A stretch of 64,000 nucleotides of DNA from Candidatus Omnitrophota bacterium (GTDB lineage: Bacteria; Omnitrophota; Gorgyraeia; Zapsychrales; Fredricksoniimonadaceae). Numbering within the stretch: position 1 is the first letter of the stretch; every line of letters starts with the position of its first letter. This document shows positions 9,573 to 56,091 of this stretch, piece after piece. Position numbers and translations under genes: made by a program. The stretch is from assembly GCA_002753465.1 (NCBI GenBank), contig PEAF01000003.1, positions 13,551-77,550 on the forward strand, read 5' to 3'. The notes beneath the pieces are model-generated. The model was not told the DNA's origin. It ran no database searches and worked only from the letters and a program-made list of their open reading frames with translations.

Positions 9573-9683
9573 AATTTTTTATTATAGCAGGATTTATCAA
9601 TAAAGACGTTTAAAAATGGAGCTTTACATAGAAATGATACAGGCGGGGCCGATCGACATTATGTCCTATATATACAAAAAAAG

Positions 9684-37022: not shown

Positions 37023-37052
37023 GTGATACCTCGAATTAACAAACATTAACCA

Positions 37053-37532: not shown

Positions 37533-37562
37533 ATAAATTACCTCTATTCGTTTATAAAAACA

Positions 37563-38864: not shown

Positions 38865-38868
38865 AAGC

Positions 38869-39519: not shown

Positions 39520-39535
39520 AAATTATGGGAATACG

Positions 39536-39904
39536 TTACCAGGTTACAGTAACATCTACTTTGCGCAGGCCGTTTGTGTCAGTCGTAATTAAGGAAACAA
39601 CATAGCTCGCCGTGAAACCCGGGAACAAAGGATCGGCAGCAACCCCGTGCGCACCAACAGATAAATTCCCTGCTGTTATTCCCGATTTTACATCTTTGTG
39701 TAATCCGTCAGCAACCTTCTTGGCAAAAGTCATAGCCGTGATCCTTGAAGAATTTGAAAGAGACGGACTATTCATAAGACCGATGGTGGATAGTACACCT
39801 GCGGCCGCGATAATAAAAATAACAGATGCAATAATTACTTCGACCAAGGTGAAACTACGACGGGCGTTCAAATAAAAGTAGGAAGATTTCTTATGGGCAA
39901 GCAT
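39536..39904 (-). CDS. minor (pseudo)pilin, PilV/GspI-like
   Basis: ...NARRS|FTLVEVIIASVIFIIAAAGVL. The start is uncertain (39904 or 39934). Confidence 0.6.
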   Translation of the reverse strand: MLAHKKSSYFYLNARRSFTLVEVIIASVIFIIAAAGVLSTIGLMNSPSLSNSSRITAMTFAKKVADGLHKDVKSGITAGNLSVGAHGVAADPLFPGFTASYVVSLITTDTNGLRKVDVTVTW

Positions 39905-40277
39905 TCTGACCCGAGGCGCATGATGGATTAGCAAGGTTAAGGGGGTTTGATGCGCCTAAATTTAACGTGATCGTAAACGCTGTTGTCGTAGCCGTACAGA
40001 CATTAGCGGCACAGGCATACGTAGCACCATTGGGCATGATATTCAGACCAAGACCCGCATTAATAGCCGCAATTGTTGCCCCCGTAAAATTAACCCCGTT
40101 ACGCGCGAAATAATCAGTATTTAGCGTATGAATGCTCCTAAGATTATTCATAGCATCACGCGCTTTGGTTCGGTTGATGGCTTTAAATAAACTAGGAAAA
40201 CCGAAAGTAACAAGTATGCCCATGATAATAACAACAACACTTAGCTCAATTATTGTGAAAGCTTTTTTATTACTCAC
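39891..40277 (-). CDS. prepilin-type protein (paralog pair A)
   Basis: MSNKKA|FTIIELSVVVIIMGILVTFGFP. Four Cys. C-terminus NPSCASGQNACP. Confidence 0.7.
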   Translation of the reverse strand: MSNKKAFTIIELSVVVIIMGILVTFGFPSLFKAINRTKARDAMNNLRSIHTLNTDYFARNGVNFTGATIAAINAGLGLNIMPNGATYACAANVCTATTTAFTITLNLGASNPLNLANPSCASGQNACP

Positions 40278-40327
40278 AAACAGATTACCTTAGTAAAAGA
40301 AAAACCCTTAACCTTTTCAAACACATC

Positions 40328-40723
40328 TTATGGACAAGCCGCGTATGTTCCCTGAGGACATGAAGGGTTTGCCGCACTTAAAGGCGTGTTTAAAGAAACA
40401 GTAGCCACAAAAATGCTCCCAGGCCCAGTCGCCACACACGTATTTGCCGCATCACAGGCATAAGTTGATCCATTAGCGCTAATATTTAATGTCAAAGCCG
40501 TATTAATGGCACCTAGATTGGCAGCCGTGCTTAAATTAGCCCCAGCACGCGAGCGGTATAGAATATTGGCCGCATGGATAATATTTAAATTATTTATAGC
40601 ATCCTTAGCTTTAGCGCGATTAATTGTTTTAGCAAAATTGGGAACACCGAAACTGGCCATAATACTTATGATGACAACAACGATCATAAGCTCAACAATG
40701 GTGAACGCTTTATTTGATCTCAT
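40328..40723 (-). CDS. prepilin-type protein (paralog pair B)
   Basis: MRSNKA|FTIVELMIVVVIISIMASFGVP. Four Cys. C-terminus NPSCPQGTYAACP. Confidence 0.7.
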   Translation of the reverse strand: MRSNKAFTIVELMIVVVIISIMASFGVPNFAKTINRAKAKDAINNLNIIHAANILYRSRAGANLSTAANLGAINTALTLNISANGSTYACDAANTCVATGPGSIFVATVSLNTPLSAANPSCPQGTYAACP

Positions 40724-40738
40724 ATAACCCTCACTTGG

Positions 40739-41161
40739 CTAATTACTAAAACACGATCGTAAAACGGCAGTAGTACACCCCGCTCCAGTACAAGTATACA
40801 CGGGAGACCCCGTTTGTGCCGCAGTTGCAGTATAAACAGGTCCGCCGACTCTACTTAACGTAACGGCGCCTGTGCCAGAATCACAAGTCGGCGTATCAAA
40901 AAACTTAGGGGTGTTAACTGCGATATCTAAGGCACTGCAGTCAGTACCGGCAAAGGTACCCTTCTCAAGGTTATACCTGGCCTGTGCGGAACGCATTGTG
41001 GACAAGGTACTTATGGCTTCTGAGCAGATAGCGCTTTCATTGGTTGAAATAAGCCTCGGGATGACGAGGGTAGCAATGACGCCCATAATAATAAGAACAA
41101 TGATCAACTCGATGATCGTAAACCCACATGCCCGATGGTTTCTGGAATTTATTATTATCAT
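40739..41161 (-). CDS. prepilin-type protein (GspG/PilA-like)
   Basis: ...RNHRACG|FTIIELIIVLIIMGVIATLVIPRL. 140 aa, immediately after pilC. Confidence 0.7.
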   Translation of the reverse strand: MIIINSRNHRACGFTIIELIIVLIIMGVIATLVIPRLISTNESAICSEAISTLSTMRSAQARYNLEKGTFAGTDCSALDIAVNTPKFFDTPTCDSGTGAVTLSRVGGPVYTATAAQTGSPVYTCTGAGCTTAVLRSCFSN

Positions 41162-41166: not shown

Positions 41167-42402
41167 CTATCCGCCTGTAGACATCGTTAAAATTGGCAAG
41201 AACATGGCGATGATAAGCACGCCGATAATGCCACCCATCACAATAAGCATAACAGGTTCGATCAAAGTTCCAAAACTTTTTAAGAAGTCTTTAACATTTC
41301 TTTTATAATAAATGGCAACGTGGTTTAACATTTTACCCAGTTCGCCTGTTTCTTCACCGACGCGTATCATCTGAACCGCCATAGGCGGGAAAAAGCCGCT
41401 TGTCTCCATCGGATCAGCTAAAAGGCGGCCTTCGCGAACAGCTTCGCGCACACCCTTGATAACTTCTGCGCAAACTAGATTATCGACAAGGCGTTCGGAT
41501 ATCTCAAGCGCATAAAGGATCGGGACACCGCTATCGACAAGCATGGCCATTTGAGACGTAAATTTCTCTACAATAATAAGTTTAAAGATCTTTCCGAAAA
41601 CAGGCATTCTAAATAAAAAGGATTCAAAATTTCTTCTGCCTATATCCGTTTTAATATAGCCCTTGAACATAAACCAGCCGCCGATACCTGCACCGATAAT
41701 AAACAGAAATTGAGTTCTGATGATCTTGAACATGGCTAAAACAGCAGATGTAATGCCGGGTAACTGCATACCCATATCTTTGAAAATACGCTCAAACGTA
41801 GGGCCGATAAAAACAGCAAAAGCCACGACAGCTCCGGTACATACAAAGAATAGAACGGCAGGATAAACGAGGGCACCGACGACAGCACTTTTAAATGCGG
41901 CAGCCTCTTCCATATATTCAGTTAGTTTTTCAAGTACAGCCGGCATGGTACCGGAGGCCTCGCCAACCTCAACTAAACTGACCCAAAACGGCGAGAAAAC
42001 TTTAGGGTGTTTGGTCAAAGCCCTACTGAAGGCCTGACCTTCCGAGACATCTGATACCAATTCATGAAGAACTTCAGACAACTGCTTACTCTCCACTTGT
42101 TCTGAGATAACGGATATAGAACGCATGAGAGGAACGCCAGCGCTAAGCATCGTCGCCATTTGGCGTGAAAATGAAATAATATCTTCAAGGGTTGCTTTTG
42201 AATGCGTAAATCTTCCGGCAGAATTATTCGAAGAAACTTTCTTTTGAATTGATGGTGCAGCATCAGCGACTTGTTTCACTGAAGTCACAAAAAGATCTTT
42301 AGCTTGAATTTGAGCAACTGCGGCATTACTGTCGAATGCTTCAATGATTTCATTGAAAGTACGCCCTGATTTATCTTTGGCGGTAAGAATAAATTTTGGC
42401 AT
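41167..42402 (-). CDS. pilC: type IV pilus / T2SS inner-membrane platform protein (PilC/GspF)
   Basis: 411 aa with two T2SSF repeats (SRQMATMLSAGVPL...; TSQMAMLVDSGVPIL...). Confidence 0.92.
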   Translation of the reverse strand: MPKFILTAKDKSGRTFNEIIEAFDSNAAVAQIQAKDLFVTSVKQVADAAPSIQKKVSSNNSAGRFTHSKATLEDIISFSRQMATMLSAGVPLMRSISVISEQVESKQLSEVLHELVSDVSEGQAFSRALTKHPKVFSPFWVSLVEVGEASGTMPAVLEKLTEYMEEAAAFKSAVVGALVYPAVLFFVCTGAVVAFAVFIGPTFERIFKDMGMQLPGITSAVLAMFKIIRTQFLFIIGAGIGGWFMFKGYIKTDIGRRNFESFLFRMPVFGKIFKLIIVEKFTSQMAMLVDSGVPILYALEISERLVDNLVCAEVIKGVREAVREGRLLADPMETSGFFPPMAVQMIRVGEETGELGKMLNHVAIYYKRNVKDFLKSFGTLIEPVMLIVMGGIIGVLIIAMFLPILTMSTGG

Positions 42403-42418: not shown

Positions 42419-44137
42419 CTAACCGATGGTTACGCCCAGCATCTCGTCCAAACTCGTAACACCCTCTTCTACTTTCTTAATGCCGATCTCAAACAACGTT
42501 GCCATGCCGTTCTTTCGCGCCGCATCGCGAATATCGTTATAAGTCGCATTTTTACCGATAAGTCGACGCATGGCCTCATCAACCAATAAAACTTCAGCGA
42601 CGACCATACGCCCCTTATAGCCGGTATGCGAACATAGATCACAACCTTTGGCACGATAGATAAGATCTGTGGCAAGTTTAATTTCACCAAGTTCTTCTTG
42701 TTTTGGCTCATAGGGTTCTTTGCAATGCGGACACAACTTGCGACCGAGGCGCTGACCGATGATCATGGTTAAAGACGGCGTTAGAAGATATGAGGGCACA
42801 CCGATATCCAATAAACGCGTGATAGCGGCAGGTGCATCATTTGTATGTAAAGTAGACAGCACAAAGTGACCTGTGAGCGCAGCACGCACGCAGATCTGGG
42901 CGGTTTCTACGTCACGCACCTCACCTACCATGATAATGTCAGGATCCTGCCTTAGAAAAGATCTTAATGCTTCGGCAAAGGTAAATCCGATATCCGGTCG
43001 AACATGAACCTGATTAATGCCATCAATACGGAACTCAACCGGGTCTTCGGCTGTCATGATGTTCTTGGCCGGGTCCATGACTTCACTTAAACAGGAATAA
43101 AGTGTCGTAGATTTACCGCTGCCCGTTGGCCCCGTCACAAAGAATAAACCATAAGGTACTTTTAATGCTTTACGGATAAGATCAAGTTGCTTGGCATCAA
43201 ATCCTAATGTCGCTAGATCGAGCCGGATGGCATCTTTATCAAGGATGCGCATAACAACTTTCTCGCCCCAAACGGTCGGCAGGGTCGATACACGAAGATC
43301 AACGGTGCGATCCTCTAGTTTTGCCGATATCCGTCCATCCTGAGGCAGACGCCGTTCGGCAATGTCCATTTTTGCCAGGATCTTCACGCGTGAAACAATG
43401 GGCATGTGCAAATGTTTCGCCGGAGGGGGGATTTGATACAATTCTCCGTCGATACGGTACCTGACATCAAGTTTATCTTTAAACGGTTCTATATGGATAT
43501 CGCTGGCACGCTCATCGATCGCCTGACGAATGATGAGATCAACAAGCTTAATAACAGGTGCTTCTTCAGCACGCGCAATTAATTTATCAAGGCTGAGCTC
43601 TGTTTCAGATTTCTCTTCAACAAAAGCGTTTTCTTTCTTCATGGTCAAATGGGCTCGTTCAACCGTCTGACCCCAAAGCGCTGCATTATTGGCCTCACCA
43701 CCAAGATAAAAATCCTGTATAGCTTTTGAAATATCTGAACGTGTCGCAATAACAAAGTTGATCTCGCAGCTTGTCATCTTTTTAAGATTGTCGATCATGA
43801 TAAGGTCGAACGGATTAAAAAGAGCGCATGTTAAAGAATTAATATTACGGCTTAAAGGAAGAACATGATTTTCCTTGGCATATTCATACGGGACAAGCTT
43901 TTCAAGACCTGCATCTTTTTGGGGTACGAGTAAACCTGAAGCTTTTGATGCGTACGGAATAAGCAATTGAGTGCTTAAAGCCGTAGCCAGATCTTCTTCT
44001 TTGATAATGCCCTTTTTTACAAGGATCTCGCCGATATGGCCTTTTTCGTTCTTCTGGGAAGCAATAGCTTCATTCAATTGGACTTCTGTCAGAAGCCCTT
44101 GTTTGATGAGGATCTCGCCTAAACGTAATCTTGACAT
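42419..44137 (-). CDS. pilB: type IV pilus / T2SS assembly ATPase (PilB/GspE) with an N-terminal MshEN domain
   Basis: Walker A GPTGSGKSTT, Asp/His boxes, tetracysteine CPHC...CDLC. N-terminus RLGEILIKQGLLTEVQLNEAIASQ-KNEKG-HIGEILVKKGIIKEEDLATALSTQ. Confidence 0.93.
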   Translation of the reverse strand: MSRLRLGEILIKQGLLTEVQLNEAIASQKNEKGHIGEILVKKGIIKEEDLATALSTQLLIPYASKASGLLVPQKDAGLEKLVPYEYAKENHVLPLSRNINSLTCALFNPFDLIMIDNLKKMTSCEINFVIATRSDISKAIQDFYLGGEANNAALWGQTVERAHLTMKKENAFVEEKSETELSLDKLIARAEEAPVIKLVDLIIRQAIDERASDIHIEPFKDKLDVRYRIDGELYQIPPPAKHLHMPIVSRVKILAKMDIAERRLPQDGRISAKLEDRTVDLRVSTLPTVWGEKVVMRILDKDAIRLDLATLGFDAKQLDLIRKALKVPYGLFFVTGPTGSGKSTTLYSCLSEVMDPAKNIMTAEDPVEFRIDGINQVHVRPDIGFTFAEALRSFLRQDPDIIMVGEVRDVETAQICVRAALTGHFVLSTLHTNDAPAAITRLLDIGVPSYLLTPSLTMIIGQRLGRKLCPHCKEPYEPKQEELGEIKLATDLIYRAKGCDLCSHTGYKGRMVVAEVLLVDEAMRRLIGKNATYNDIRDAARKNGMATLFEIGIKKVEEGVTSLDEMLGVTIG

Positions 44138-44142: not shown

Positions 44143-45612
44143 TTATTTACGCTGGTGCTGGTTAGCGATACTGAGTAAGTCCTCGCTGATCACTTTTGAT
44201 CTATCCGGAGAGGATGTTTCACGTGAACGAAAATCAATGGCCTTCTTTTTCCCATCCAATGAATCACCTAAATTGTTAAGAATGGTCGGAGTTATAAAAA
44301 TGATAAGCTCACGGTCAGTGCCATTTATATTATCTGATCTGAATAACCGGCCTAAAAAAGGAATACTTCCTAAAAAGGGAACTTTAGTAACAACTTTTTC
44401 AAGTTTTTTACGCAAAAGACCACCAATCATAATAGTCTCACCTGCCTGTACTTTCATTATAACACTGGCTGAACGTTCTTCGGTATCTCTAAAAGCTTGA
44501 CCGCCTTCTTTTGAAAATTGACTTTGAGACGCCTCGATCGCTTTGGGCGTTATGGCCAGTGTGATCTCATTGGTTAATAAATTGACCTGGGGCGTGACAG
44601 TTAAGAAAACACCTGTTTTGGCACGTTCAGCTGTCGTTGTTCTTTTGCCGGTTGTTGCATCTTCAACAGTAATAGTACCAACCACTTCATCGTTGGATAT
44701 CATTATTTGAGCCGTCTGATTGTCCATGGTTAATATGCGTGGCCTGGCGAGTGCACGTGTATCCGTGCACTTTTCGAGAAAGGTTGCGGCCGCGGTCATA
44801 CCCTTCATTCCCATTGTTCCGGCACCAGAAAAGGTTCGTAGACCACCCTTATCCAAAATATTTTTCTGATTAAAAGGGAAAAATGTAGGAATAGTAGCTC
44901 CCGTTACACTAAAGAAAGTTCCACTTCCATAATCGAAACCCAGGGTGTCAACGTTGATCTTACTAACATCGAGCATTTTGACTTCGATCAAAACTTGAGG
45001 GATGGCAATATCTAGTTTTGCTAATATAGCGTCAATTTTAGAAAAGTTTTCTTCGTAATCTGTGATGATCAGGCTATTGGTACGCGGATCTTCGGCGACT
45101 TTGCCGTCTTTTGAAATTGCAGATTGTAAGCTGGAACTTATTCCAGAGTCTTTACCACCAGCAACGGCTGCGCCAGCTCCGACAATAGAAATGGTAGCGT
45201 TAAGTTTAGAACCGGACACGGTGGCATTCTTTAAGGGATATACCCGCGTGACCATTTTCACTTCTTGATCTTTGGCGGAAACAGTGAAGATATTGGATTC
45301 GGCATTATAGACATATGTCAAACCATTGGAAGCCAGTATCCTTTCCATTGCTTCTTCCACAGGAACATTATCGAGATACACAGTTACTTTAGTTTTCTCA
45401 ATTTTTGAATCTAAAACAAAATTGGCACCGATTTGACGTGAAAAAACCTTTAGAACATCCTTCATGTCAGCATCTTTCAGGTCCAAAGAAACCCGTTTTG
45501 AATACTGAGGCATAATGAAAGAACTGTCTTCACTGAATGCCTGAGAGGACACAAAGAAAAGAATACCGAATGTTGCCGTGCAGAAAATGCGAAGGTAAAA
45601 CAGATTTTTCAT
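44143..45612 (-). CDS. pilQ: secretin (PilQ/GspD family)
   Basis: Signal peptide and N0/N1-like domains. Secretin C-domain ...GGLLRKKLEKVVTKVPFLGSIPFLGRLFRSDNINGTDRELIIFITPTIL. Confidence 0.88.
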   Translation of the reverse strand: MKNLFYLRIFCTATFGILFFVSSQAFSEDSSFIMPQYSKRVSLDLKDADMKDVLKVFSRQIGANFVLDSKIEKTKVTVYLDNVPVEEAMERILASNGLTYVYNAESNIFTVSAKDQEVKMVTRVYPLKNATVSGSKLNATISIVGAGAAVAGGKDSGISSSLQSAISKDGKVAEDPRTNSLIITDYEENFSKIDAILAKLDIAIPQVLIEVKMLDVSKINVDTLGFDYGSGTFFSVTGATIPTFFPFNQKNILDKGGLRTFSGAGTMGMKGMTAAATFLEKCTDTRALARPRILTMDNQTAQIMISNDEVVGTITVEDATTGKRTTTAERAKTGVFLTVTPQVNLLTNEITLAITPKAIEASQSQFSKEGGQAFRDTEERSASVIMKVQAGETIMIGGLLRKKLEKVVTKVPFLGSIPFLGRLFRSDNINGTDRELIIFITPTILNNLGDSLDGKKKAIDFRSRETSSPDRSKVISEDLLSIANQHQRK

Positions 45613-45623: not shown

Positions 45624-46100
45624 TTATTTATTAAAATATTTTACGAAGTAGATCTCGTCAGCATATTTAAAAATGATCCCGCCTTCTTTAATCTTTAAAA
45701 CTTTTGCACGGGCAACAATATCACCTACGCCTACCACTTGCCCGTTAATAATAGCTTGCGGTTGTTTTGTCTTAAAGATCAATCCTGTTACGCTCATTTT
45801 CGGTAAGACAAGCCTCGGGAGCTTTACAGGTTTAGCGATCTTTTTAACAGGTGGCGGAGCTGGTTCAACTGGCTTAATCTCAACGACGACAGGTTTCTCT
45901 ACTTTCTTCACAAAAGCAGGTTTTGGCTGCCATTTCATAAAAGGATTTCTTAACGAAGAAACAACCTCTGTAAATGGCGACTCCTGCTCGGCTAACCCTG
46001 CTGATAACAAAACAGCGAACAAACAAAGAAATGCACCCGCTATAAGAGTATATCGGACAAAAAAGTTCTTGTTACTTCTTTTTAGATTTTTTCTGATCAT
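45624..46100 (-). CDS. PilP/GspC-like secretin-linking protein (tentative)
   Basis: N-terminal TM, Pro-rich spacer (KPVEPAPPPVKK), C-terminal beta-domain GLIFKTKQPQAIINGQVVGVGDIV. Position is between the pilO-like gene and the secretin. Confidence 0.4.
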   Translation of the reverse strand: MIRKNLKRSNKNFFVRYTLIAGAFLCLFAVLLSAGLAEQESPFTEVVSSLRNPFMKWQPKPAFVKKVEKPVVVEIKPVEPAPPPVKKIAKPVKLPRLVLPKMSVTGLIFKTKQPQAIINGQVVGVGDIVARAKVLKIKEGGIIFKYADEIYFVKYFNK

Positions 46101-46698
46101 TATTTAACAATTCAATTGAAGTAATGCTTAAACTAAGATTGATGCCTTTTTCCCCTTGAGACGGGGTTTCGGATGATGCTTCAACTTTACTTATATTTAC
46201 AGAATCGACCTTAAGCAGAAATTTTGAACTTTCAAGGTCATGAATAAATAAGAGGGCGTTTTGGAATGATGTTACCCCACAAATAAAACTGATCTTTGTT
46301 TCGCGATAAAAACTTCTGATTATGGTCTGAGGAGGTTCAAACGAATCGATCTGAATGCCGCGCTTATTAGCTGTTTCCGCCACAAAAGGGATCATGTTGT
46401 TCTCGGATAAAGCGCTGGGGATTAGCTTATAAATAGCCTGCATATCCTTAAGTACTTTTTCGTAGTCATTGATCGGTTGCTCTTTTGATCTAAGAACTTT
46501 TAGCTGTTCACTCAGTTTGTAATACTCTGCAGAACGCACATTAATGATCACACCCATAACAATCAAGGCTATTAAAACTAAAACAGAAGACAGAACAAGC
46601 GCTTGACGCTCATTGATAAAGTTCTTTATATCCTGAGGGGTAATATGCTTAATAGCCTCGAAATCAACTTTGAAATTTTTTAAGTCATCTAGATTCAT
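46072..46698 (-). CDS. PilO/GspM-like bitopic protein (tentative)
   Basis: Short cytoplasmic N-terminus, one TM (LVLSSVLVLIALIVMGVIINV), a coiled coil and a C-terminal domain. The position matches pilO. Confidence 0.5.
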   Translation of the reverse strand: MNLDDLKNFKVDFEAIKHITPQDIKNFINERQALVLSSVLVLIALIVMGVIINVRSAEYYKLSEQLKVLRSKEQPINDYEKVLKDMQAIYKLIPSALSENNMIPFVAETANKRGIQIDSFEPPQTIIRSFYRETKISFICGVTSFQNALLFIHDLESSKFLLKVDSVNISKVEASSETPSQGEKGINLSLSITSIELLNNDQKKSKKK

Positions 46699-48308
46699 TT
46701 TCCCTCACAGACAATCTTTAAGGTTGTAACTTTCTTTTTATCAACTGTCTGGGATTTTAAAGATGATACTGTTACCTTCTGGAATTTAGAAAAGAATAGA
46801 TCATCTTTGCGTAAATTGTTAATAAAGCGATTGGCTTCATTAAAAGCTATGTTGGCATCACTTATGTGCAGCTTGGCATCAAACTCAAGCGAAAACGTGG
46901 ATTGAATGGGCGTATATTTAATCTCCTGGGCTTCTGATTTATCTTCTTCAGATTTTTCAATCTTTATGGCACGCCCTGAACCGGTGCCATCTTGATCGGC
47001 AATTGATAATAAAATTGAATCAAGTGTCATTTCTTTAGGCATACGCTTGATCAAACGGATAATTAACGGTGAAATTCTGCCGTTTAAAGGCAGCGATTGC
47101 AGCGCCTTTAATTTATGGCGCTCATTGCTGATATGTTTATCAATTTCATCCACTGACAATTCCATATGATTGCCGGCAGTAGACATTAAAGCCTTGATCT
47201 GAAAATTTAACCCGTTAACAAAAAGACCGCTGAAGTAGAAAACAAGCCCGATCGTACATGCAGTGACAATGCCTAATAAAATAGGCAGTATCAGCTTGCG
47301 GTTCTTTTTAAGAATTTCTTCTTTTTTAAGTGATACCTGCGTTGAGGCATCTTCAAAAAGGTTAAAGTCGATTACAGAAGAAATATCACCTGACATTGAC
47401 GCACCAAAAGCATTCGCGCCTTCAATGTCCATAAGGCCGGGCATGCTAAATAGTTTAGATGAATCAACGATCTCCAAAGGAACGCCGGCCTCTTCATTTA
47501 AGCCAGTCCAAAACGCCTGACTCCGTCCTGAAGAAAGCGTAATAAGCTTATCTACGCCAGTTTCACTGCTTTGACGTGAAAAGAACTCGAAAGAAATTCG
47601 CACTTCATTGAATATCCTGGTACGTAAAACATCATCGATGTCACCCGCTGTCATCTGGACATCATCTGTATTGATCTTGAAATCACGGATGAATTTAACA
47701 TGACCCTTATACGCAATAATAAGCTCACCGGAACTGCCAAAAACATTCAAAATAGCTGTATTCTGATCTAAGTTGATCAGACGTTTATAGACCAGAATCC
47801 TTAAAAGGCTCATGGCTGCAGGTTCACTGCAGACAACATTGAGACCGGATTGTATGAAAACATTGGTGTATTTGGATAATACGACTTTTCTAATAGCTAC
47901 AAAGACAATCCCTATTTGCTTGATATTGTCCAGGACAACTGTCGTCGGATAGTACGTATAGGCAATTTCATTTAAATTAAAAGGTATGTATTTTTGAGCT
48001 TCGAAGGCAACCGATCCATGGATCTCGCTGCTTTTCATCCATGGGATAATGAACGAACGGATCAAAATATCTTTGGAGGGAAGGGCGACGTGTGTGTTTA
48101 AAGTGGAGAACCCATTGTTGTGGATCGTTTTCTGCAATGCTTCAAGGATCCGCAGATCACTTGAAATTCCAGGATTGTGCGAGGCCTCAGCATTATCGTC
48201 AGGTTCAAAAGGAACAAAGGCCGACAATAAGGGCGTATCTCGTCCCGACTCAACGAGAGAAATACCTTTTTCGCCCCAATAAACACCTAATCGTTTATGC
48301 GTCGCCAT
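46695..48308 (-). CDS. PilM-PilN fusion (GspL-like architecture)
   Basis: About 330-aa actin-like PilM-type N-domain (KRLGVYWGEKGISLVE...), a TM (LILPILLGIVTACTIGLVFYF), then about 180 aa of PilN-like periplasmic region. Confidence 0.7.
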   Translation of the reverse strand: MATHKRLGVYWGEKGISLVESGRDTPLLSAFVPFEPDDNAEASHNPGISSDLRILEALQKTIHNNGFSTLNTHVALPSKDILIRSFIIPWMKSSEIHGSVAFEAQKYIPFNLNEIAYTYYPTTVVLDNIKQIGIVFVAIRKVVLSKYTNVFIQSGLNVVCSEPAAMSLLRILVYKRLINLDQNTAILNVFGSSGELIIAYKGHVKFIRDFKINTDDVQMTAGDIDDVLRTRIFNEVRISFEFFSRQSSETGVDKLITLSSGRSQAFWTGLNEEAGVPLEIVDSSKLFSMPGLMDIEGANAFGASMSGDISSVIDFNLFEDASTQVSLKKEEILKKNRKLILPILLGIVTACTIGLVFYFSGLFVNGLNFQIKALMSTAGNHMELSVDEIDKHISNERHKLKALQSLPLNGRISPLIIRLIKRMPKEMTLDSILLSIADQDGTGSGRAIKIEKSEEDKSEAQEIKYTPIQSTFSLEFDAKLHISDANIAFNEANRFINNLRKDDLFFSKFQKVTVSSLKSQTVDKKKVTTLKIVCEGK

Positions 48309-48328
48309 GCAGTATATCCATTACTATT

Positions 48329-48357
48329 ATTTAATCCTTAGCTCAAACCTTTGTCAA
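48329..48357 (-). promoter_or_regulatory. possible internal promoter ahead of pilMN
   Basis: Minus strand TTGACA (perfect -35) - 17 nt - TTAAAT in the 72-nt gap. Confidence 0.3.
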
Positions 48358-48380
48358 ACGCTTTCGGAGATATTAAAAAG

Positions 48381-48704
48381 TCAATAGGTGACCAGCACCG
48401 TATATGGCGAGGTGCCACCAGGACCTGAACCGCTTGACGAATACGTAACCGTGTAGAGGTTCCCATTTAAATACTCAGTGTAGTTAGTTAAGGCCCAGCC
48501 GTTATGTAACGCTTCAACAGCCTTCCAAACAGCCCCTTTAGCGATCACCTCGGCCGTAATTCGTTTGAGAATCGAATCAGATGATAAAGCGCGGGACGTC
48601 GTCCGGCTTAATATACCCATGACTAGAATGAAAATAACCAGAATAGACATAATAACAACAGTTAGAACGAACGCGTGCTTGCGACGGATATTATTCTGAT
48701 TCAT
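48381..48704 (-). CDS. PilX/GspK-like minor pilin (non-cleaved hydrophobic N-terminus)
   Basis: MNQNNIRRKHAFVLTVVIMSILVIFILVMGILSRT resembles the PilX_N type. The ATG at 48704 has a GGAGAA SD. The track ORF start at 48770 lies inside the upstream gene. Confidence 0.45.
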   Translation of the reverse strand: MNQNNIRRKHAFVLTVVIMSILVIFILVMGILSRTTSRALSSDSILKRITAEVIAKGAVWKAVEALHNGWALTNYTEYLNGNLYTVTYSSSGSGPGGTSPYTVLVTY

Positions 48705-48921
48705 GGCTGTTCTCCACGTAACTTTTACAAATAGGGCAAACCCAAATAGCCGGAACATGCTCCATTTCAATAATATGACTACAGTATACGCACTGCCGGA
48801 CAGTCTTGTGTTTTTCTTTTGTCTTCTTAAATAGAAAGCATTTATTCTGCAGTATTAAAAAAAATATAAGTACCCCTAGCAGTCCTATCCCAACGAGAAA
48901 TGAAAGTTCAACTTTAATCAA
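48691..48921 (-). CDS. small membrane protein with a C-terminal CxxC...CxxC zinc ribbon (uncharacterised)
   Basis: TM LSFLVGIGLLGVLIFFLIL, then CVYCSHIIEMEHVPAIWVCPIC. The start codon is TTG and overlaps the upstream stop (TTGA). The SD is weak. Confidence 0.35.
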   Translation of the reverse strand: MIKVELSFLVGIGLLGVLIFFLILQNKCFLFKKTKEKHKTVRQCVYCSHIIEMEHVPAIWVCPICKSYVENSHESE

Positions 48922-49325
48922 TGATTTTCCAATCTAAGATCCATTAATGATGCCGCAGGTATATCATCGCTACCGGATACCGGTTCAACATCCAAAGAAA
49001 CAGACTCACCTACAAAACGCAGCAATCTGCTATCAGCGATTTGTGTTGCACCGCTAAATATATTCGGTTTATCGTATTGAATCCCTTGTAACCACATTTT
49101 TTGACGAAGCTTGATATCAGAAGCCACGGAGATCTCTGGTGCCCAAGTTCCAGACATTGTCTTTTCCTGAAAAAAACTCACATCATTTAATCTTAAAATA
49201 GATCCCAAAGATACAAAATCAAACAGGTAATCCTTGGAAACTCCATGCACCTTGAAACTAAAAAGCAAGAAAACTAAAATATGAGAAATGATCGCCAAGC
49301 TGGCCGCTCGATGCCATGCCAACAT
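48918..49325 (-). CDS. TonB/TolA-position N-terminally anchored protein, no recognisable C-terminal domain
   Basis: A single N-terminal TM with an embedded His (AASLAIISHILVFLLFSF). It directly follows exbD, with GGAGGAG upstream. It has no Pro-rich spacer and no TonB_C-like end. Confidence 0.35.
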   Translation of the reverse strand: MLAWHRAASLAIISHILVFLLFSFKVHGVSKDYLFDFVSLGSILRLNDVSFFQEKTMSGTWAPEISVASDIKLRQKMWLQGIQYDKPNIFSGATQIADSRLLRFVGESVSLDVEPVSGSDDIPAASLMDLRLENH

Positions 49326-49328
49326 AAA

Positions 49329-49724
49329 CTACTCCTCCTGATCACTTGCGACATTAATACGTTTAATTCCTGTTGCACGTGCAATATCCCATATATCAAC
49401 AACGCGGCCAACAGACGCCCTGCGGTCGACCTTTATAAAAAGTCCCGCGGGCGTTCTTTTTACAAAGAGATTTCTGAGTTCCTGCAAGGTTATAATCCTA
49501 TTATTAATAAATAAAATGTTTTCTCCCGTCACGACAACAGTTAGATCTGTAACATTAAGCATGTCACTGGTAACAACCTTAGGAAGCTTTACAAGCATGA
49601 CAGGTTTTCCTAAAGACACCGGGACAATGTAAAGAAAAGCCAAAATAAGAAGTGCCAGATTTATAAAAGCAAAGGCATCGATCCGTAATATAGGCGAAAC
49701 CTTTACATATTGAGCAAAATTCAT
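49329..49724 (-). CDS. ExbD/TolR family PMF-stator subunit
   Basis: 131 aa. TM with the conserved Asp (ILRIDAFAFINLALLILAF). Periplasmic domain ...FIKVDRRASVGRVVDIWDIARATG. Confidence 0.8.
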   Translation of the reverse strand: MNFAQYVKVSPILRIDAFAFINLALLILAFLYIVPVSLGKPVMLVKLPKVVTSDMLNVTDLTVVVTGENILFINNRIITLQELRNLFVKRTPAGLFIKVDRRASVGRVVDIWDIARATGIKRINVASDQEE

Positions 49725-50395
49725 ACATCCTCCTTGATAAAAAGATTGCTTCCATTGGAGGATGCCATGATCGATAAAAGAGAAGCTGAAGATCTTTCCA
49801 ATCCGTGAACAGTATCAAGAATTTTTCCAGCCAGATAATTATGGGCCATCAAAGCGACAATGCTAACCGTTAAACCACTCGCTGTTGTGATCAAAGCATG
49901 CCAAACACCCGTTGTAACATCCGCCATCGTCATGGGGTTAATTGCTTCAGTACGAATTTGCACCAAATATAAAACATTGGCAAGCCCAAGGACAGTCCCC
50001 AAGATCCCTAATAAAGGGGCGACGGTGACCATCGTGGCAAGAATATTCATGCCGTTTTCTAATACCGGAAGTTCTTGCTTGACGATGCCGTGCATCGCTT
50101 CTGATATATCACTTTCGGCACACGCGAATTTCAAAAGCCCGGATTTAAAAATCCCTCCTAAAAGAGATGAAGTAGCATCACATAACTCAATAGCTTGCTT
50201 GATCTCATTCTTACGAACAGCCGCAAGAACACAGTCGGTAAGTATTGCCGATTCTTTAACAACCAATGATAGAGAAAACATTTTCTGGATAATAACAGTC
50301 AATGAGATCATCGAACACGCTAGAATAGGCCACATCAATGGCCCTCCCATTATAAAAATCTGCCAGGGTGTTATTTCTGTCATGAGTACACTCAA
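49721..50395 (-). CDS. MotA/TolQ/ExbB family proton channel
   Basis: 224 aa, three TM segments. C-terminal signature TVAPLLGILGTVLGL...ALITTASGLTVSIVAL. Confidence 0.85.
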   Translation of the reverse strand: MSVLMTEITPWQIFIMGGPLMWPILACSMISLTVIIQKMFSLSLVVKESAILTDCVLAAVRKNEIKQAIELCDATSSLLGGIFKSGLLKFACAESDISEAMHGIVKQELPVLENGMNILATMVTVAPLLGILGTVLGLANVLYLVQIRTEAINPMTMADVTTGVWHALITTASGLTVSIVALMAHNYLAGKILDTVHGLERSSASLLSIMASSNGSNLFIKEDV

Positions 50396-52870
50396 CTAAT
50401 TCTTGGTACGTCTGTCTAAAACCCAGGCGATGCGCTCAGCCGCAAATTTAGATTCAGCCACATTCATATCAACGATCTTCTTATAGGCGGCAACAGCCTT
50501 ATCCCAATCTTCTTTATTCTCATATATCTTGCCGATCCTCAGATAAGCTTTGATCACCCAAGAGGACTCCTTTGAATAAATATAGGGGATCTTGAAATAA
50601 ACCTCTGCTGCCTTATCAAGTTCTCCCAGGATTTCATAAGCATCACCCATCGCAAATTGTATTTGAGCATTAGTTGTATCACTTTGCCCCTTAGGCGCAT
50701 CGAATGCCTTTTGATAGGCATTAAGCTCATCGTTATATTGACGCTGCTTACGGTAAATCTGCGCAATCTTAACTAAAGCATCACGGGTAAAATCAGGGCT
50801 GGTGGCAATGATACTTTGATACGTTTCAATGGCTTTGGCAGGGTCAATTTCCTTGGAAAATATCTCCGCGATCGCCAACTTTGCTTTCGGGTAAAAAGAA
50901 GGGTCTTTCTTGGCATCAACCTGCCGGTAATGTTCCAATGCCTTATCAAACTGCTCTAAAGCATGGTAAGCTCGCGCCAACTCAAAATGAATCATTCCCG
51001 TCTTGGGCGTTTGAGGCATATCGTTAAGAGCAGCTAAGTAATATTCAACGGCACGTTCGAATGCACGCGTAGTCATAGCGTGCTGCCCCATCCAGAGGTA
51101 AGACTCCAGCGCGGCATCAGTTTTAGGGTACCGATACGCAATCTCTTTAAATCGGACAAGTCCCTCCTTAACATCACCCATTTCATAATAAGTTTTTGCA
51201 ATACCTGTTTGCGCATTTTGAACAATTAGGGGTTGATCGGGATAAATCTTTATCATTTCATTAAAAATATTAATAGCTTTATCAAATTGGTGAAGATTAA
51301 AATAAGCCAGCGCTAAAAGATATCTCGCTTCAGATGAAAACTCGCCCTGGACCGACGCCGTGGAAATAAAGGCCGTTAAGACTTCGACCGTAGAGGCCCA
51401 GTCTTTCTTTTTAAAATAGGCGGCGCCAAGATAATATTTAGATTCGTTTAAATACTTACTGTTCGCATAATTTGTTTTTAATGCCTGTAAGGCCAAAACA
51501 GCAGAATCAATTTGCCCCATCTTGAGAAGCGCAACCCCCAGCATGTATTGAGCATGGTCAGAATAGGGCGTGTCAGGCATCTCCTTAAGGATTTTGTCGT
51601 AGATACCAATCGCCTTATCCATTTCACTGGCATCCTGATAAGCATCAGCAATCTGAGTCAAAGCACTGGCTTTTACATTCTTACTGTCAGCTTTATCGAC
51701 AACGGACTGGAAGCTCTTAATGGAGCTTGCAAGGTCTCCGCTTTTAAGATATGTCCACGCCAATCCAAAACGGGCTTTCTCAATAAGATTGACCTGAGCA
51801 GGGTCCATTTCATAAAGTGAAATAAGCTGTTTGTAATCGTTAATGGCCAGGGCATATTCATTAATAAGATAGTAAGCGTTAGCGCGCCCCAAATAACTTT
51901 CAACAACGCGACCACTAGACGGAAAACGTGAAATAAGGTCACTGTAACTGATGATCGCCTCTTTGAATTTTTCCTGAGATGTGAACAGGCTCGCTTTCCC
52001 CAGAAGAATATCTTCTTCTGAAATATTGCCCGATTTAGCCGCCGACTGGGCCTCATCAAATGCTTTCAGGGCTTCATCAAACTTCTGCATTTTCATGTAG
52101 CTCCAGCCTACGCCGATCATGGATAACATGATCGATCTGGAGTCCTTGGTCAATGACTTAGCTTTTAAATATCCGTCTACAGACTTGTCAAATTGTTCAA
52201 GGTAGTAGAACGCCTCGGCAATATTAAACTGTGCGTCATAAAGCCGGGACGACTGCGGATGATCTTGAATATATTTGCTGAACTGGACAATAGAGGCCTC
52301 ATACTGACCAGCGTTATAGTCACATTCACCTAGTTTGAAGGCCGCGTCCTCAGAAAGATTATTGGATGGGTATTTCTCGATCAAAAGTTGAAATGTTTTC
52401 TTGGACTGGTCATAATCACCTTTTTGAAAATAACTCCAGGCCAAAGAATAATATGCCTGTGATGTGTAAAGTGATGACGGGAAGCCGTCAATCACTTGAC
52501 GGTACTGTTCTTGTGCCTTGGCAAGATCGCCACCTTTTAAATAGGTTTCTCCTAACCAGAAAAGAGAGGCGTCTTTATACTCCCCGCGACCGACAAGGTC
52601 TTTAAAAATAGCAAAAGCCTTAACGTATTCTTTCTTAAAAAAATAACATTGTCCTTCTAAGAGCTTAGCTTCAACTAATTTGGTCGTGGCGGGGAATTCT
52701 TTTAAAAGCTGATCGATATAACGGATGGAAACATCAAAGAAACCATCTTCGAAAGCACGTTGAGCAACAACATAAAGCTCTTTTTCATTAGAAGCGGAAA
52801 ATGAGGGCTCTTGAGGACTAAATATGAAAATATTTAAAAATATTAAACTTATTAAATAGACTTTTCTCAT
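50396..52870 (-). CDS. large exported TPR-repeat protein (YbgF/CpoB- or BamD-like repeats)
   Basis: 824 aa. Signal peptide, then continuous TPR-like units (A..Y.LG..Y...g.y..A...F). Its stop abuts the exbB start. Confidence 0.8.
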   Translation of the reverse strand: MRKVYLISLIFLNIFIFSPQEPSFSASNEKELYVVAQRAFEDGFFDVSIRYIDQLLKEFPATTKLVEAKLLEGQCYFFKKEYVKAFAIFKDLVGRGEYKDASLFWLGETYLKGGDLAKAQEQYRQVIDGFPSSLYTSQAYYSLAWSYFQKGDYDQSKKTFQLLIEKYPSNNLSEDAAFKLGECDYNAGQYEASIVQFSKYIQDHPQSSRLYDAQFNIAEAFYYLEQFDKSVDGYLKAKSLTKDSRSIMLSMIGVGWSYMKMQKFDEALKAFDEAQSAAKSGNISEEDILLGKASLFTSQEKFKEAIISYSDLISRFPSSGRVVESYLGRANAYYLINEYALAINDYKQLISLYEMDPAQVNLIEKARFGLAWTYLKSGDLASSIKSFQSVVDKADSKNVKASALTQIADAYQDASEMDKAIGIYDKILKEMPDTPYSDHAQYMLGVALLKMGQIDSAVLALQALKTNYANSKYLNESKYYLGAAYFKKKDWASTVEVLTAFISTASVQGEFSSEARYLLALAYFNLHQFDKAINIFNEMIKIYPDQPLIVQNAQTGIAKTYYEMGDVKEGLVRFKEIAYRYPKTDAALESYLWMGQHAMTTRAFERAVEYYLAALNDMPQTPKTGMIHFELARAYHALEQFDKALEHYRQVDAKKDPSFYPKAKLAIAEIFSKEIDPAKAIETYQSIIATSPDFTRDALVKIAQIYRKQRQYNDELNAYQKAFDAPKGQSDTTNAQIQFAMGDAYEILGELDKAAEVYFKIPYIYSKESSWVIKAYLRIGKIYENKEDWDKAVAAYKKIVDMNVAESKFAAERIAWVLDRRTKN

Positions 52871-52922: not shown

Positions 52923-55709
52923 TTATCTTAAAAGCAGCGGCCGTAAATATTGCCCTGTATAAGATCGTGCGTGGTGAACAAGATCTTCAGGTCTTCCGCA
53001 AAAAACAATCTCTCCACCCCGGTCACCGCCATCTGGGCCAAGATCGATGATACAGTCAGCTGATTTGATCACGTCAAGATTATGTTCAATTACCAGTACT
53101 GTGTTGCCTTTATCAACAAGCCGTTGCAACACTGTTAAGAGTTTCTGGACATCGGCAAAATGCAAGCCCGTTGTCGGTTCGTCAAGAACATATAAAGTGC
53201 GCCCTGTCGCCGGCTTACAGAGTTCTGCCGCCAGCTTGACACGCTGGGCCTCGCCGCCGGAAAGAGTCGTTGCCGACTGTCCTAACTTAATATAACCAAG
53301 TCCGACATCATTAATCACTTCAAAAATACGCCGTATGCGGGGTATATTCTCGAAAATATCCAGTGCTTCAATGATCGAAAGATCCAGGATCTGGCTAATA
53401 TTCTTGCCTTTGTATTCAACTTGAAGCGTCTGCTCGTTAAACCGGTGACCATGGCAAACCTCACACTCCACATGAACATCCGGCAGAAAATGCATCTCTA
53501 TTTCTTTGACACCGTCTCCCTGACATGCTTCACACCGACCACCTTTAACATTAAAACTAAATCTTCCCGGATCGTATCCACGTAATTTAGCTTCAGGTAA
53601 TCGAGCGAACAAAGAACGAATATCTGTAAAGACACCTGTATATGTCACGGGATTGGAACGAGGCGTTCTTCCGATAGGCGATTGATCGACGACGATCACC
53701 TTGTCAATATTATCCAAACCAGTGATTTTTTTGAATGCGCCAGGTTTTTCACGCGAATGATTGATCTTCTGTGCAATGGCCTTATAAAGAACATCGTTCA
53801 CAAGGGTGGATTTGCCAGACCCTGAGACTCCGGTAATGCATATAAAAGCACCTAAGGGGAAATCAACGTCAATATTTTTAAGATTATGTTCAGACACGCC
53901 TGTGAGACGGATAAACTTGGTGTTGATGATTTCACGCCGTTTGTCCGGAAGAGGGACTTTAATGGCTCCCTTCAAATATTTTCCAGTCAATGATCCCGGT
54001 GTATTCATGATCCCTTCTACGGGGCCGGCGTACATGATCTCACCCCCATGAAGCCCGGCTCCTGGTCCGAGATCAACCACCCAATCTGCCCGACGGATCG
54101 TTTCTTCATCATGCTCAACGACGATCAGTGTGTTACCAAGATCGCGAAGGGCATGCAAACTGGCCAGTAAACGATCATTATCTTTTTGATGCAATCCGAT
54201 CGATGGCTCATCAAGCACATAAACAACACCGACCAGTCCTGATCCGACCTGGGTAGCCAGCCGGATACGCTCGGCTTCGCCACCGGATAGGGTGCCGCTC
54301 TTACGGTCAAGGGTAAGGTAATCCAGGCCGACATTGATACAAAAATCCAGCCTGCGATTGATCTCTTTCAGGATGGGGTCGGCGATAGATACTTTGTCAC
54401 TATCCCAACTTAACCCTGCAAAGAAGTCTTTGGCTTCAGTAATAGAGAGCTTTACGACATCGGCAATATTCTTCCCCCCCACTAAAACCATCAGCGACTC
54501 TCTTTTGAGTCGATCGCCGTTGCATGATGGACACGGCGCCTCAGACATGAACTTGGAGATCTCTTCCTTTAACCAGTCACTGTCTGTCTCACGGAAAAGC
54601 CGCTCCAAATATCCGGCCACACCCTCAAATTTCTTGCCCCAAATAATATCCTCTCCGCCGAAAAGAACACGTTTCTTAAAATCCTTTGGAAGTTTATTGA
54701 ATGGCGTCGTTGCATTAATATTGTAAAGACCGGCGATTTCACGCAAAACCGCGCGATAATACATCATGTACCCGCGTTGCCCCTTTCTCCACGGCACTAT
54801 AGCGGAAACCCATGGCTTATCCGGGTCACTGACCAATGATAAAGTGTCAATTTCCATCTTAGTGCCAATACCATTGCACTCCGGGCATGCACCATAGGGC
54901 GAATTAAAGGAGAACGTACGTGGCTCAAGTTCAGGTAAATTTATATCCTCATCAGGAACGGAGAAACTTTCGCTAAGCATCAAGTCCGGCTTATTATCTT
55001 GAAAGCCGACAATTAGAAATCCTTTTCCTATTCTAAGGGCTGTTTCGGTAGAATCTGTCAGACGGGATTTAATATCAGGCTTTACCGTTAAACGATCAAT
55101 CATGATCTCGATCGAATGCACCTTATAACGGTCTAATTTAATCTTTTCACTTACTTCATAAATCTCGCCATCAACACGTAAACGGGCAAATCCGGCCTTA
55201 GCAACTTCGTTACCGATATTAGGATAGGTTCCCTTTTTACCGCGTACGTAAGGGGCAAGTATCTGAATCTTTGTTCCTTCAGGAAGTCGCAGTATACGAT
55301 CGACCATTTCCTGGGCAGACTGCTTCTCAAGCTTAGTACCTTTGTAGTATGGCACCCCAGTCCTTGCAAAAAGCAAACGTAAATAATCGTAGATCTCGGT
55401 TTGAGTCGCTACCGTAGATCGAGGATTGCGGCTTGTGGTTTTCTGTTCAATGGAAATCGTAGGGCTAAGGCCTTCGATGGACTCAACGTCAGGCTTTTGC
55501 ATTTGATCAAGGAATTGACGTGCATAGGCAGACAGACTTTCAACATATCTACGCTGTCCTTCAGCATAAATAGTGTCAAAAGCCAGTGAAGATTTTCCTG
55601 AACCACTTAAGCCCGTCACAACAATAAACTTATTGCGCGGCAACTCAAGTGAAACATTCTTCAGATTATGTTCTTTAGCGTTTTTTATAACGATATTATT
55701 TAATTGCAT
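52923..55709 (-). CDS. uvrA: excinuclease ABC subunit A
   Basis: 928 aa. Two ABC modules ([45 protein letters not shown]) and zinc modules CPECNGIG and CEACQGDG. Confidence 0.97.
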
Positions 55710-55821: not shown

Positions 55822-56091
55822 TTACTTCTTTGCCTTCTTAGCGACCTTCTTCTTCTTGCCGCCCTTGACCATAGCCGCGCAAGAGATATCTCCCTGCTTG
55901 TCAATGAAGTACAGGAAACCAGCTTCCTTCTTGATGCCGACCTTAGCGACCTTCTTGGTCTTACCACCCTTCTTGTCGCCGCGAGCCATAGCTGCGCAGG
56001 AAACGTCACCCTGCTTATCAATGAAATACAGGAATCCCTTTTCCTTCTTGACCCCAACCTTCTGAACTTTCTTAGCCATTTTCTTATTCAC
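55822..56091 (-). CDS. small lysine-rich protein with an internal 39-aa duplication (uncharacterised)
   Basis: KKVxKVG(V/I)KKExGFLYFIDKQGD(V/I)SCAAM occurs twice. The track start at 56091 is GTG. An ATG at 56079 (MAKKVQK) is also possible, with AAAGGGGG upstream. The gene has its own terminator. Confidence 0.6.
   Translation of the reverse strand: MNKKMAKKVQKVGVKKEKGFLYFIDKQGDVSCAAMARGDKKGGKTKKVAKVGIKKEAGFLYFIDKQGDISCAAMVKGGKKKKVAKKAKK

Follow-up and report, generated by a model that had tools for sequence, protein, structure and literature searches.

The subject of this analysis is a group of six genes around an ExbB-ExbD pair in a Candidatus Omnitrophota bacterium (GenBank assembly GCA_002753465.1, contig PEAF01000003.1). 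The whole stretch of DNA that was analysed, hereafter called the window, comprises 64,000 nt (contig positions 13,551 to 77,550), and its genes lie almost all on the minus strand. The six open reading frames (ORFs) run on this strand from 52870 down to 48381 and are all intact. The first gene of the module (50396-52870) encodes a secreted tetratricopeptide repeat (TPR) protein of 824 aa with YbgF/CpoB-like repeats, which matched many Pfam TPR families. It is followed by the genes for an ExbB/TolQ-family channel subunit of 224 aa, counted from a TTG start (49721-50395), and for an ExbD/TolR-family subunit of 131 aa (49329-49724). The next gene (48918-49325) codes for a 135-aa protein which, on the basis of a family alignment, hhalign and AlphaFold2, is a putative short anchor of the TonB/TolA family. 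A 76-aa protein with a transmembrane (TM) helix and a Zn-ribbon (48691-48921) and a small pseudopilin-like protein of 107 aa (48381-48704) complete the run. These six ORFs and all junctions listed in the original prediction for this locus were borne out when read from the sequence. The TTG start of exbB (50395) abuts the stop of the TPR gene (50396), exbB and exbD overlap by ATGA (49721-49724), and only 3 nt lie between the exbD stop and the ATG of the 135-aa gene (GGAGGAG-TAG-TTT-ATG). The 135-aa and 76-aa genes overlap by TTGA (48918-48921), while the overlap of the 76-aa and 107-aa genes amounts to 14 nt, with GGAGAA upstream of the ATG of the latter (48704). A 72-nt gap (48309-48380) precedes pilMN, the first gene of a type IV pilus/secretion cluster.

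The tight stop/start chaining had originally been read as a signal of a connection between the ExbB-ExbD pair and a pilus subunit. Since tight packing is the norm in the window, it carries no such signal. Among 57 junctions, 29 overlap or abut and 41 have a gap of at most 20 nt, the median gap being 0. The hisD/alaS/recX/recA and ksgA/pdxA/surA/mfd genes as well as gatB and the gene of an S41 peptidase are unrelated, yet chained likewise, and the same holds for an RsmE-type methyltransferase gene amid the pilin genes. Only nine gaps exceed 60 nt, the one ahead of pilMN among them.

ExbB, ExbD and the anchor protein

The window ExbD scored 46.4 bits against PF02472 (cutoff 25.4). A profile of its clade matched E. 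coli ExbD (E = 8e-20) and TolR (E = 6e-10); a single-sequence search of the PDB with the window protein gave no match, and the PDB alignment was obtained with the clade profile. Proteins of the ExbD/TolR family possess a protonatable Asp in their TM helix, D25 in ExbD, D23 in TolR and D32 in MotB. In the window ExbD, Asn22 fills the column of this Asp within the conserved motif P-L-I-D-x-V-F (alignment A5). Through the clade profile, the column was anchored to D25 in the segment P22-F23-I24-D25 of the E. coli ExbD structure (6tyi, 6tyi_Y), and inspection of A5 revealed that the spacing between N22 and the LPK motif is the same as that between Asp and LPK in Asp-bearing homologues. The Asp of RIDAFAF (D16), which had been taken for the retained TM residue, aligns with a juxtamembrane Asp or Glu and not with the D25 column. 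The conserved Pro three residues before this column is also gone (Ala19).

The column was scored in 80 metagenome loci retrieved by ExbD alignment, 79 of which were scorable. Asp was present in 71 loci, Asn in four and Gly in four, one sequence being truncated. Loci are designated here by L numbers. Asn occurs in the three loci closest to the window (L093, L094, L096) and in L137, furthermore in L001, the closest long relative, in L089 and L092, and in two Verrucomicrobiota loci, L038 and L048. Because it is common to the nearest relatives of the window, the alignments indicate that Asn characterises the clade and did not arise from a sequencing error. They also suggest that the Asp was lost several times within the module family. 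Gly ('APLIGMVLQLL') was found in the Omnitrophota loci L107, L108, L125 and L154, which encode full-length TonB-like proteins.

In E. coli, 18 out of 19 substitutions of D25 abolished the activity of the TonB system, Glu retaining 5-10% of it, and the D25N derivative of ExbD was dominant-negative, did not respond to the proton motive force (PMF) and mimicked a collapse of the proton gradient (bioRxiv 10.1101/2022.09.26.509584). By analogy, it is unlikely that the window ExbBD acts as a proton-driven motor for the pilus. The designation of the pair as a PMF stator can hardly be maintained, as the Asp needed for the PMF response in E. coli is replaced by Asn.

The 135-aa protein encoded downstream of ExbD matched neither Pfam nor NCBIfam, and a word-indexed homologue search returned only the protein itself. 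An exhaustive HMMER search led to a small family of ~135-142-aa proteins. The TM helix of the window protein contains AxxxH (A11, H15). Although this spacing had been judged not to be canonical, the His is in the TonB/TolA register, since SxxxH was found in 60 and AxxxH in six of the 66 anchors scored. Behind the helix, the family shares the motif F-x-G-S-I-L-R-x-x-D-V, and three further short motifs (W..GI..DKP, RF.GE.V.LD and DIP....LRL) are located in the tail. AlphaFold2 predicted a confident TM helix (residues 2-21) and one short helix, the remainder being extended and of low confidence; according to this model, the protein would be devoid of a globular periplasmic domain. Pro-Glu/Pro-Lys repeats are absent from the sequence and TonB_C (PF03544) matched neither the window anchor nor its short-form homologues, in agreement with the earlier statement that the protein has neither a Pro-rich spacer nor TonB_C.

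At the position after ExbD, most related loci have the gene of a longer protein (204-230 aa), whose TM helix contains 'SLLGH' and whose C-terminal block is conserved. A comparison of the 135-aa family with this long-form family by hhalign yielded a probability of 96.2% (E = 2e-9) over 51 N-terminal columns. The C-terminal block of the long form, on the other hand, aligned with the TonB_C region of the L013 TonB (70% probability, E = 4e-5; profile A7), L013 being an Omnitrophota locus with a bona fide TonB (TonB_C 52.6 bits). The 241-aa orthologue of L012 reached 21.6 bits against TonB_C, just below the cutoff of 24.6, and in the common 207-211-aa long forms of L003, L005 and L104 Pfam TonB_C gave no match. 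The sole PDB matches of the long-form profile were weak and concerned the membrane anchor of TolA (E = 0.05). These alignments identify the 135-aa protein as a probable short form of a TonB/TolA-family anchor that lacks the C-terminal domain. It can thus hardly be called a novel adaptor, as originally proposed, since its N-terminal ~50 residues match the TonB-like long forms. Short forms made up 18 of the 66 anchors (about a quarter of the sampled loci), and those of L089 and L092 are shorter still (87-88 aa). An ordered decay, in which TonB_C was lost first and the ExbD Asp later, was ruled out, because L137, where an Asn-type ExbD is paired with a long anchor, and the Gly-bearing loci L107, L108, L125 and L154 have long anchors. 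In L013 (9986-19198), the genes for ExbB, ExbD and TonB are followed by a 2,361-aa ORF without a Pfam domain, which echoes reports that, in Omnitrophota, secretion or TonB-domain genes flank giant genes.

The loss of the ExbD Asp, of the conserved ExbD Pro and of TonB_C might indicate that the module is non-functional in the window lineage and awaits deletion. The 87-88-aa anchors of L089 and L092 and the lack of the TPR gene and the anchor in L008 and L017 would be in line with such a decaying remnant. However, no ORF is disrupted in this compact genome, in which hardly any spare DNA is left, and strong Shine-Dalgarno sequences have been kept. Moreover, the ExbDs of the Asn-type clade are 43-46% identical to each other and strongly conserved in their periplasmic domain, and the motifs of the short anchors are conserved along the whole length. 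Decay is therefore quite improbable.

ExbB scored 83.9 bits against PF01618 (cutoff 22.9). The Thr residues of TM2 (T134 in 'APLLGxLGT') and TM3 (T171) are invariant (alignment A3). Its start is ambiguous; the NCBI product comprises 204 aa, while N-terminal conservation with homologues favours TTG 50395 or ATG 50383. In the PDB alignment to TolQ, His166 occupies the TM3 Glu column (TolQ E173, ExbB E176). Among the 120 nearest ExbBs, this column contains Gln in 102 and His in two proteins. The exchange of Glu for His or Gln was considered as further evidence of a dead channel and rejected, as Gln is the majority residue, also in canonical receptor-ExbB-ExbD-TonB clusters. The closest named relatives of the protein belong to Candidatus Omnitrophica/Omnitrophota; an ExbB scan of genome contigs gave, among the matches listed, mostly distant ExbBs. 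The TPR gene precedes ExbB in all 32 loci with enough flank. Ten stretches of the TPR protein matched NCBIfam TIGR02795 (232 bits), and against the CpoB equivalog NF008068 it reached 70 bits (cutoff 383). CpoB/YbgF proteins have ~260 aa, with a coiled coil and one TPR domain.

It is conceivable that the module is an ordinary Ton or Tol energiser and that its clients (TonB-dependent receptors or TolB-Pal) are specified by genes in other parts of the genome. Outside Omnitrophota, the nearest ExbB (37% identity) belongs to a canonical cluster of receptor, ExbB, ExbD and TonB genes in a Desulfobacterales genome (L007), TolQ was the best match of the window ExbB in both NCBIfam and the PDB, the TPR protein has CpoB/YbgF-like repeats, and with L013 there is an Omnitrophota locus that combines ExbB-ExbD with a bona fide TonB. 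By contrast, the scores of the window proteins against the NCBIfam equivalogs of TolQ, ExbB, TolR and ExbD were all far under the cutoffs, for example 76.3 versus 221 (TolQ, TIGR02796) and 39 versus 206.2 (ExbB, TIGR02797). The ExbD Asp is missing, and the anchor has no TonB_C or TolA domain III with which an outer-membrane partner could be reached. Neither TolB, PD40 nor an OmpA-family Pal was detected among the ORFs of at least 110 aa of the 64-kb window or in the related loci inspected, and the annotation of the window revealed no TonB-dependent receptor. Hence, the earlier statements that TolB, Pal and receptor are absent from the window and that the module differs from standard Ton and Tol systems are well founded, and an ordinary energiser is very improbable.

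Zinc-ribbon protein, pseudopilin-like protein and gene order

The 76-aa protein combines a TM helix at the N-terminus with a Lys-rich stretch and a zinc ribbon (CxxC...CxxC), the latter probably on the cytoplasmic side. Its zinc-ribbon matches in Pfam were all weak. The protein is homologous to a 76-aa protein in the same position of L012 (E = 3e-8), and all 48 loci in which the sequence extends 1.1 kb or more downstream of ExbD carry a homologue, as does L038 of the Verrucomicrobiota. From this distribution, the Zn-ribbon protein is a conserved accessory subunit of the ExbBD module and not part of the pilus side.

The 107-aa ORF had been described as a PilX-like minor pilin, a designation without support by hidden Markov models (HMMs). 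No sequence match was obtained in Pfam or the PDB, N_methyl did not appear even at E values up to 10, and the word-indexed search returned only the protein itself. Members of the family (alignment A4) have Gly at position -1 (Ala in the window) and a hydrophobic helix, lack Glu5 and share a C-terminal '...V-x-Y'. What speaks for a pilin-like architecture is the single-sequence AlphaFold2 model (pLDDT 71), which shows a helix (residues 3-67) and a three-stranded sheet. The top Foldseek matches of this model, to the minor pseudopilin EpsI/GspI of the type II secretion system (T2SS), were non-significant (best E = 1.2, probability 0.82). Because a homologue is located directly upstream of (HTH_17-)pilM in 28 out of 30 loci and is absent from L012, which has no pil genes, the 107-aa ORF is assigned to the pilus side. 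A DUF2582 gene separates it from the Zn-ribbon gene in most loci. The overlap of the two genes, which was found in the window, L001, L009 and L011, is probably a derived state of lineages without DUF2582.

The usual gene order in the relatives is uvrA, TPR, ExbB, ExbD, TonB-like, Zn-ribbon, DUF2582, small pseudopilin, HTH_17 and pilMN. Between the module and pilM, DUF2582 occurs in 23 and HTH_17 in 24 out of 30 loci, and CutA1 is another unrelated gene found there. The gaps preceding HTH_17 measure 94-150 nt. Among loci in which 5 kb or more of sequence is available downstream of the module, 19 out of 20 contain pil genes there, and these also follow it in L001-L005, L008, L009, L011, L017 and L089. 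The functionally unrelated uvrA gene, located at 52923-55709 (minus strand) in the ORF listing of the window, served as a synteny control. It lies upstream of TPR-ExbB in 31 out of 32 loci and, in addition, in L001, L003, L005, L008, L009, L011, L012, L017 and L063. Ahead of uvrA, aspartate dehydrogenase (AspDH) and a small ORF are present in at least 14 out of 25 loci. On the other hand, five loci possess the module without pil genes, namely L012, with DUF2582, CutA1 and an M48 peptidase downstream, L160, where the subsequent genes encode NAD synthase, an AsnC-family regulator and glutamine synthetase, and L090, L063 and the Verrucomicrobiota locus L038. Thus, the neighbourhood of module and pil genes is conserved, but it is not specific to the pilus. 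To judge from these loci, functional coupling and inherited collinearity cannot be told apart by gene order.

Upstream of uvrA, two further observations were made. In many relatives, for instance L003 (1541-3133), a second TPR protein of ~530 aa is encoded directly upstream of uvrA; its insertion probably explains why AspDH falls outside the flank in 11 out of 25 loci. In the window, an 89-aa Lys-rich protein with two internal repeats (VG-KKE-GFLYFIDKQGD-SCAAM) and no Pfam match is encoded at 55822-56091 (minus strand), beside a strong terminator-like hairpin at 55798-55761 (minus strand). Its gene always lies between that of aspartate dehydrogenase and uvrA, and with 62-82% identity across divergent Omnitrophota loci the protein is unusually conserved for an unannotated small protein.

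Pilus cluster and further features of the window

The pilus/secretion cluster, likewise on the minus strand, starts with a gene for a PilM-PilN fusion of 537 aa (46695-48308; PF11104 36 bits, TIGR01175 51 bits). According to Pfam, the genes for PilO (46072-46698), a PilP-like protein (45624-46100), a secretin with STN/N0 domains (44143-45612), a PilB ATPase with an MshEN domain (42419-44137) and PilC (41167-42402) follow. Eight prepilin-like genes recognised by N_methyl complete the cluster, five at 38869-41161 and three tandem major-pilin paralogues at 36543-38042. The paralogues consist of 159, 159 and 167 aa, the first two being near-identical, and all have the C-terminal 'ALAVAAGALCAGY' in common. 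The gene of an RsmE-type 16S rRNA methyltransferase (38124-38879; Pfam Methyltrans_RNA) is inserted between the minor-pilin and the three major-pilin genes and overlaps the upstream pilin-like gene by 11 nt.

Within the gap ahead of pilMN, a promoter-like element (48329-48357, minus strand) was read from the sequence. It is composed of TTGACA (48357-48352), a 17-nt spacer and TTAAAT (48334-48329) and lies 49 nt upstream of the pilMN ATG. The block GAAA-CGTTTGACAA-GG is common to this gap and that of L001, where it is located 52 nt upstream of pilM; the flanking proteins of the two loci are 35-46% identical. Thus, pilMN probably has a promoter of its own, with read-through from upstream being possible. 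The gap itself had been correctly described, and the element that it contains counts against a dedication of the module to the pilus. The 10-mer TTGACAARGG occurs only three times in the 1.1 Mb of surveyed loci and once in the window. As a general pilM promoter or operator it was rejected, since it was found only in the window and L001 and is absent from 30 metagenome loci with pilMN; it was not detected in loci with HTH_17 at that position.

A coupling of the module to the adjacent type IV pilus/T2SS-like machine, which the original prediction considered to be without a characterised example, has a precedent in PocA-PocB-TonB3 of P. aeruginosa. This complex is needed for the production and localisation of type IV pili, and a contact of TonB3 with the N0 domain of PilQ was proposed (PMC5285504). 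It is conceivable that the module is similarly a functional accessory of the machine, acting in its assembly, its placement or the function of the secretin, being PMF-driven in Asp-bearing lineages and a static adaptor in the window lineage. This would agree with the pil genes in 19 out of 20 and about ten further loci, with the retention of ExbBD beside pilM in L008 and L017 despite the loss of the TPR gene and the anchor, and with the overlap of the pseudopilin-like and Zn-ribbon genes in four loci, including the window. The STN/N0 domain of the secretin is of a kind also found in TonB-dependent transducers. In addition, an Omnitrophota genome preprint reported that its collection lacks the canonical architecture of TonB-dependent receptors; if this absence is general in the phylum, the module would be without its usual client. 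By contrast, uvrA and AspDH are conserved as neighbours to a similar degree, unrelated genes and gaps of 94-150 nt usually intervene between module and pilM, five loci have the module without pil genes, and the promoter-like element precedes the window pilMN. For the same reasons the claim that the module is dedicated to the pilus could not be sustained, and a coupling of this kind appears tenable but rather unlikely.

Some features outside of the two gene groups may be mentioned. At 10140-10685 (minus strand), a 181-aa protein is encoded in which a bactofilin domain is fused to a C-terminal HTH_17, the same domain family as that of the small gene ahead of pilM in most relatives. An Mfd-like protein of 641 aa (21938-23863, minus strand) comprises UvrB-interaction, CarD/TRCF-RID and helicase domains, and its gene overlaps a surA-like gene; typical Mfd proteins are much longer (~1,150 aa). 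The sole RNA gene detected, a tRNA-Met (CAT) gene at 9683-9757 (minus strand), lies within the largest intergenic gap.

Relation to known systems and interpretation

A search of the literature on ExbB/ExbD or Tol-Pal in Omnitrophota yielded nothing specific. What the module has in common with TonB-ExbB-ExbD of E. coli are the adjacent, overlapping exbB (PF01618) and exbD (PF02472) genes, the subsequent gene for a single-pass protein with a TM His and a small residue four positions earlier, and the TonB_C-like domain in which the longer orthologues of this protein end. What separates it from that system are the Asn at the position of D25, the anchor without Pro-rich spacer and C-terminal domain, the lack of a receptor nearby, and the additional genes, i.e. 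the 824-aa TPR gene upstream and the TM + Zn-ribbon gene downstream. Similarities to Tol-Pal exist as well, since ExbB fitted best to TolQ models and TolQ structures, the membrane segment of the long-form anchor weakly matched the TolA N-terminus (E = 0.05), and a periplasmic TPR protein with CpoB/YbgF-like repeats is encoded in the same operon. However, the window is devoid of TolB, Pal and TolA domains II and III, the equivalent of TolR D23 is Asn, and the TPR protein, three times as large as CpoB, is encoded first, not last. The common feature with PocA-PocB-TonB3 (PMC5285504) is an ExbB/ExbD/TonB-type complex linked to type IV pili rather than to nutrient import. Yet the Poc link is genetic and experimental, while the link in the window is known from gene order alone, and TonB3 was reported as a TonB homologue, whereas the window anchor has no C-terminal domain.

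Modules composed of TPR, ExbB and ExbD were also identified in the Planctomycetota-Verrucomicrobiota-Chlamydiota (PVC) group (L031, L036, L070, L082, L038). Like the module in the window, they have a large TPR gene upstream and the gene for a single-pass protein downstream. Particularly L038 of the Verrucomicrobiota resembles the window, as it encodes an SxxxH anchor, a Zn-ribbon protein and an Asn-type ExbD. In the Planctomycetota and most Verrucomicrobiota loci, by contrast, the downstream partner has 1,100-1,600 aa, and none of the five loci has pil genes nearby. L031, L036, L070 and L082 consist of genes for a ~1,050-aa TPR protein, ExbB, ExbD and a 1,100-1,600-aa protein with one N-terminal TM helix, without TonB. 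This arrangement may represent a distinct ExbBD-powered system.

Taken together, the observation behind the original prediction was confirmed in part, and its interpretation is partly supported. In our judgement, it is somewhat probable that the six genes specify a PMF-unresponsive, Ton-like envelope complex which is merely collinear with the pilus cluster. They constitute the Omnitrophota form of a Ton/Tol-type inner-membrane complex, with ExbB as the channel, ExbD as the plug and a single-pass partner of the TonB/TolA family. Its two lineage-specific companions are the large CpoB-like TPR protein in the periplasm and the zinc-ribbon protein tethered to the membrane. The module is inherited as part of a long collinear block that comprises aspartate dehydrogenase, the small ORF, uvrA, the genes from TPR to Zn-ribbon, DUF2582 where present, the pseudopilin gene, HTH_17 where present, and pilMNOPQBC. 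DUF2582 and HTH_17 are absent in the window lineage, and the apparent chaining to a pilus subunit would have arisen because, without DUF2582 in a compact genome, the pseudopilin gene came to overlap the Zn-ribbon gene. As the pilus genes have a promoter-like element of their own, their adjacency would reflect conserved gene order, by which a coupling is not demonstrated. The two features by which Ton/Tol acts as a proton-driven force transducer are missing, the ExbD transmembrane Asp, now Asn, and the TonB-type C-terminal domain. Since both were lost, the complex would most likely be static and unresponsive to the PMF. The Asn-type ExbD may mimic the protonated, PMF-collapsed state, and the scaffold would be made up of the conserved periplasmic domain of ExbD, the short periplasmic motifs of the anchor and the TPR protein.

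Several points weigh against such a static and merely collinear complex. As the six ORFs are intact and the C-terminal motifs of the short anchors conserved, the module is under selection for some function. The assumed unresponsiveness to the PMF relies on mutagenesis in E. coli, by analogy, and an alternative protonatable residue, e.g. His166 of ExbB, could conceivably compensate. In L008 and L017, the TPR gene and the anchor were lost while ExbB-ExbD was kept between uvrA and pilM, which may hint at a partner of ExbBD on the pilus side. The adjacency to pil genes persists across deep divergence (ExbB 33-38% identical), and in L089 the distance from the pseudopilin gene to pilM is only 18 nt. 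A terminator-like fold was not detected in the 72-nt gap (z = +0.84), so that co-transcription is possible. A bolder proposal is that of a phylum-wide, five-component Ton-like module whose client would be the type IV pilus/T2SS-like machine instead of an outer-membrane receptor. In this module, the Asp would have been lost repeatedly (Asn at least three times, Gly once), and the complex would work without proton flow through ExbD as a Poc-like adaptor, i.e. a motor in transition to a scaffold. We regard this proposal as unlikely.

As regards annotation, the 135-aa 'hypothetical' protein can be labelled as a truncated TonB-family anchor, and an active stator subunit should not be presumed in the window ExbD. 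If the module serves the pilus/secretin machine, it would be a second, phylogenetically distant example of the poorly understood Poc-type link, with a fixed gene neighbourhood. Of the remaining features, the most interesting are the recurrent natural loss of the ExbD Asp, the anchors without TonB_C and the universal Zn-ribbon subunit. These Asp-less ExbDs and TonB_C-less anchors, together with the constant Zn-ribbon subunit, provide natural material on roles of ExbB-ExbD beyond the harvesting of the proton gradient.

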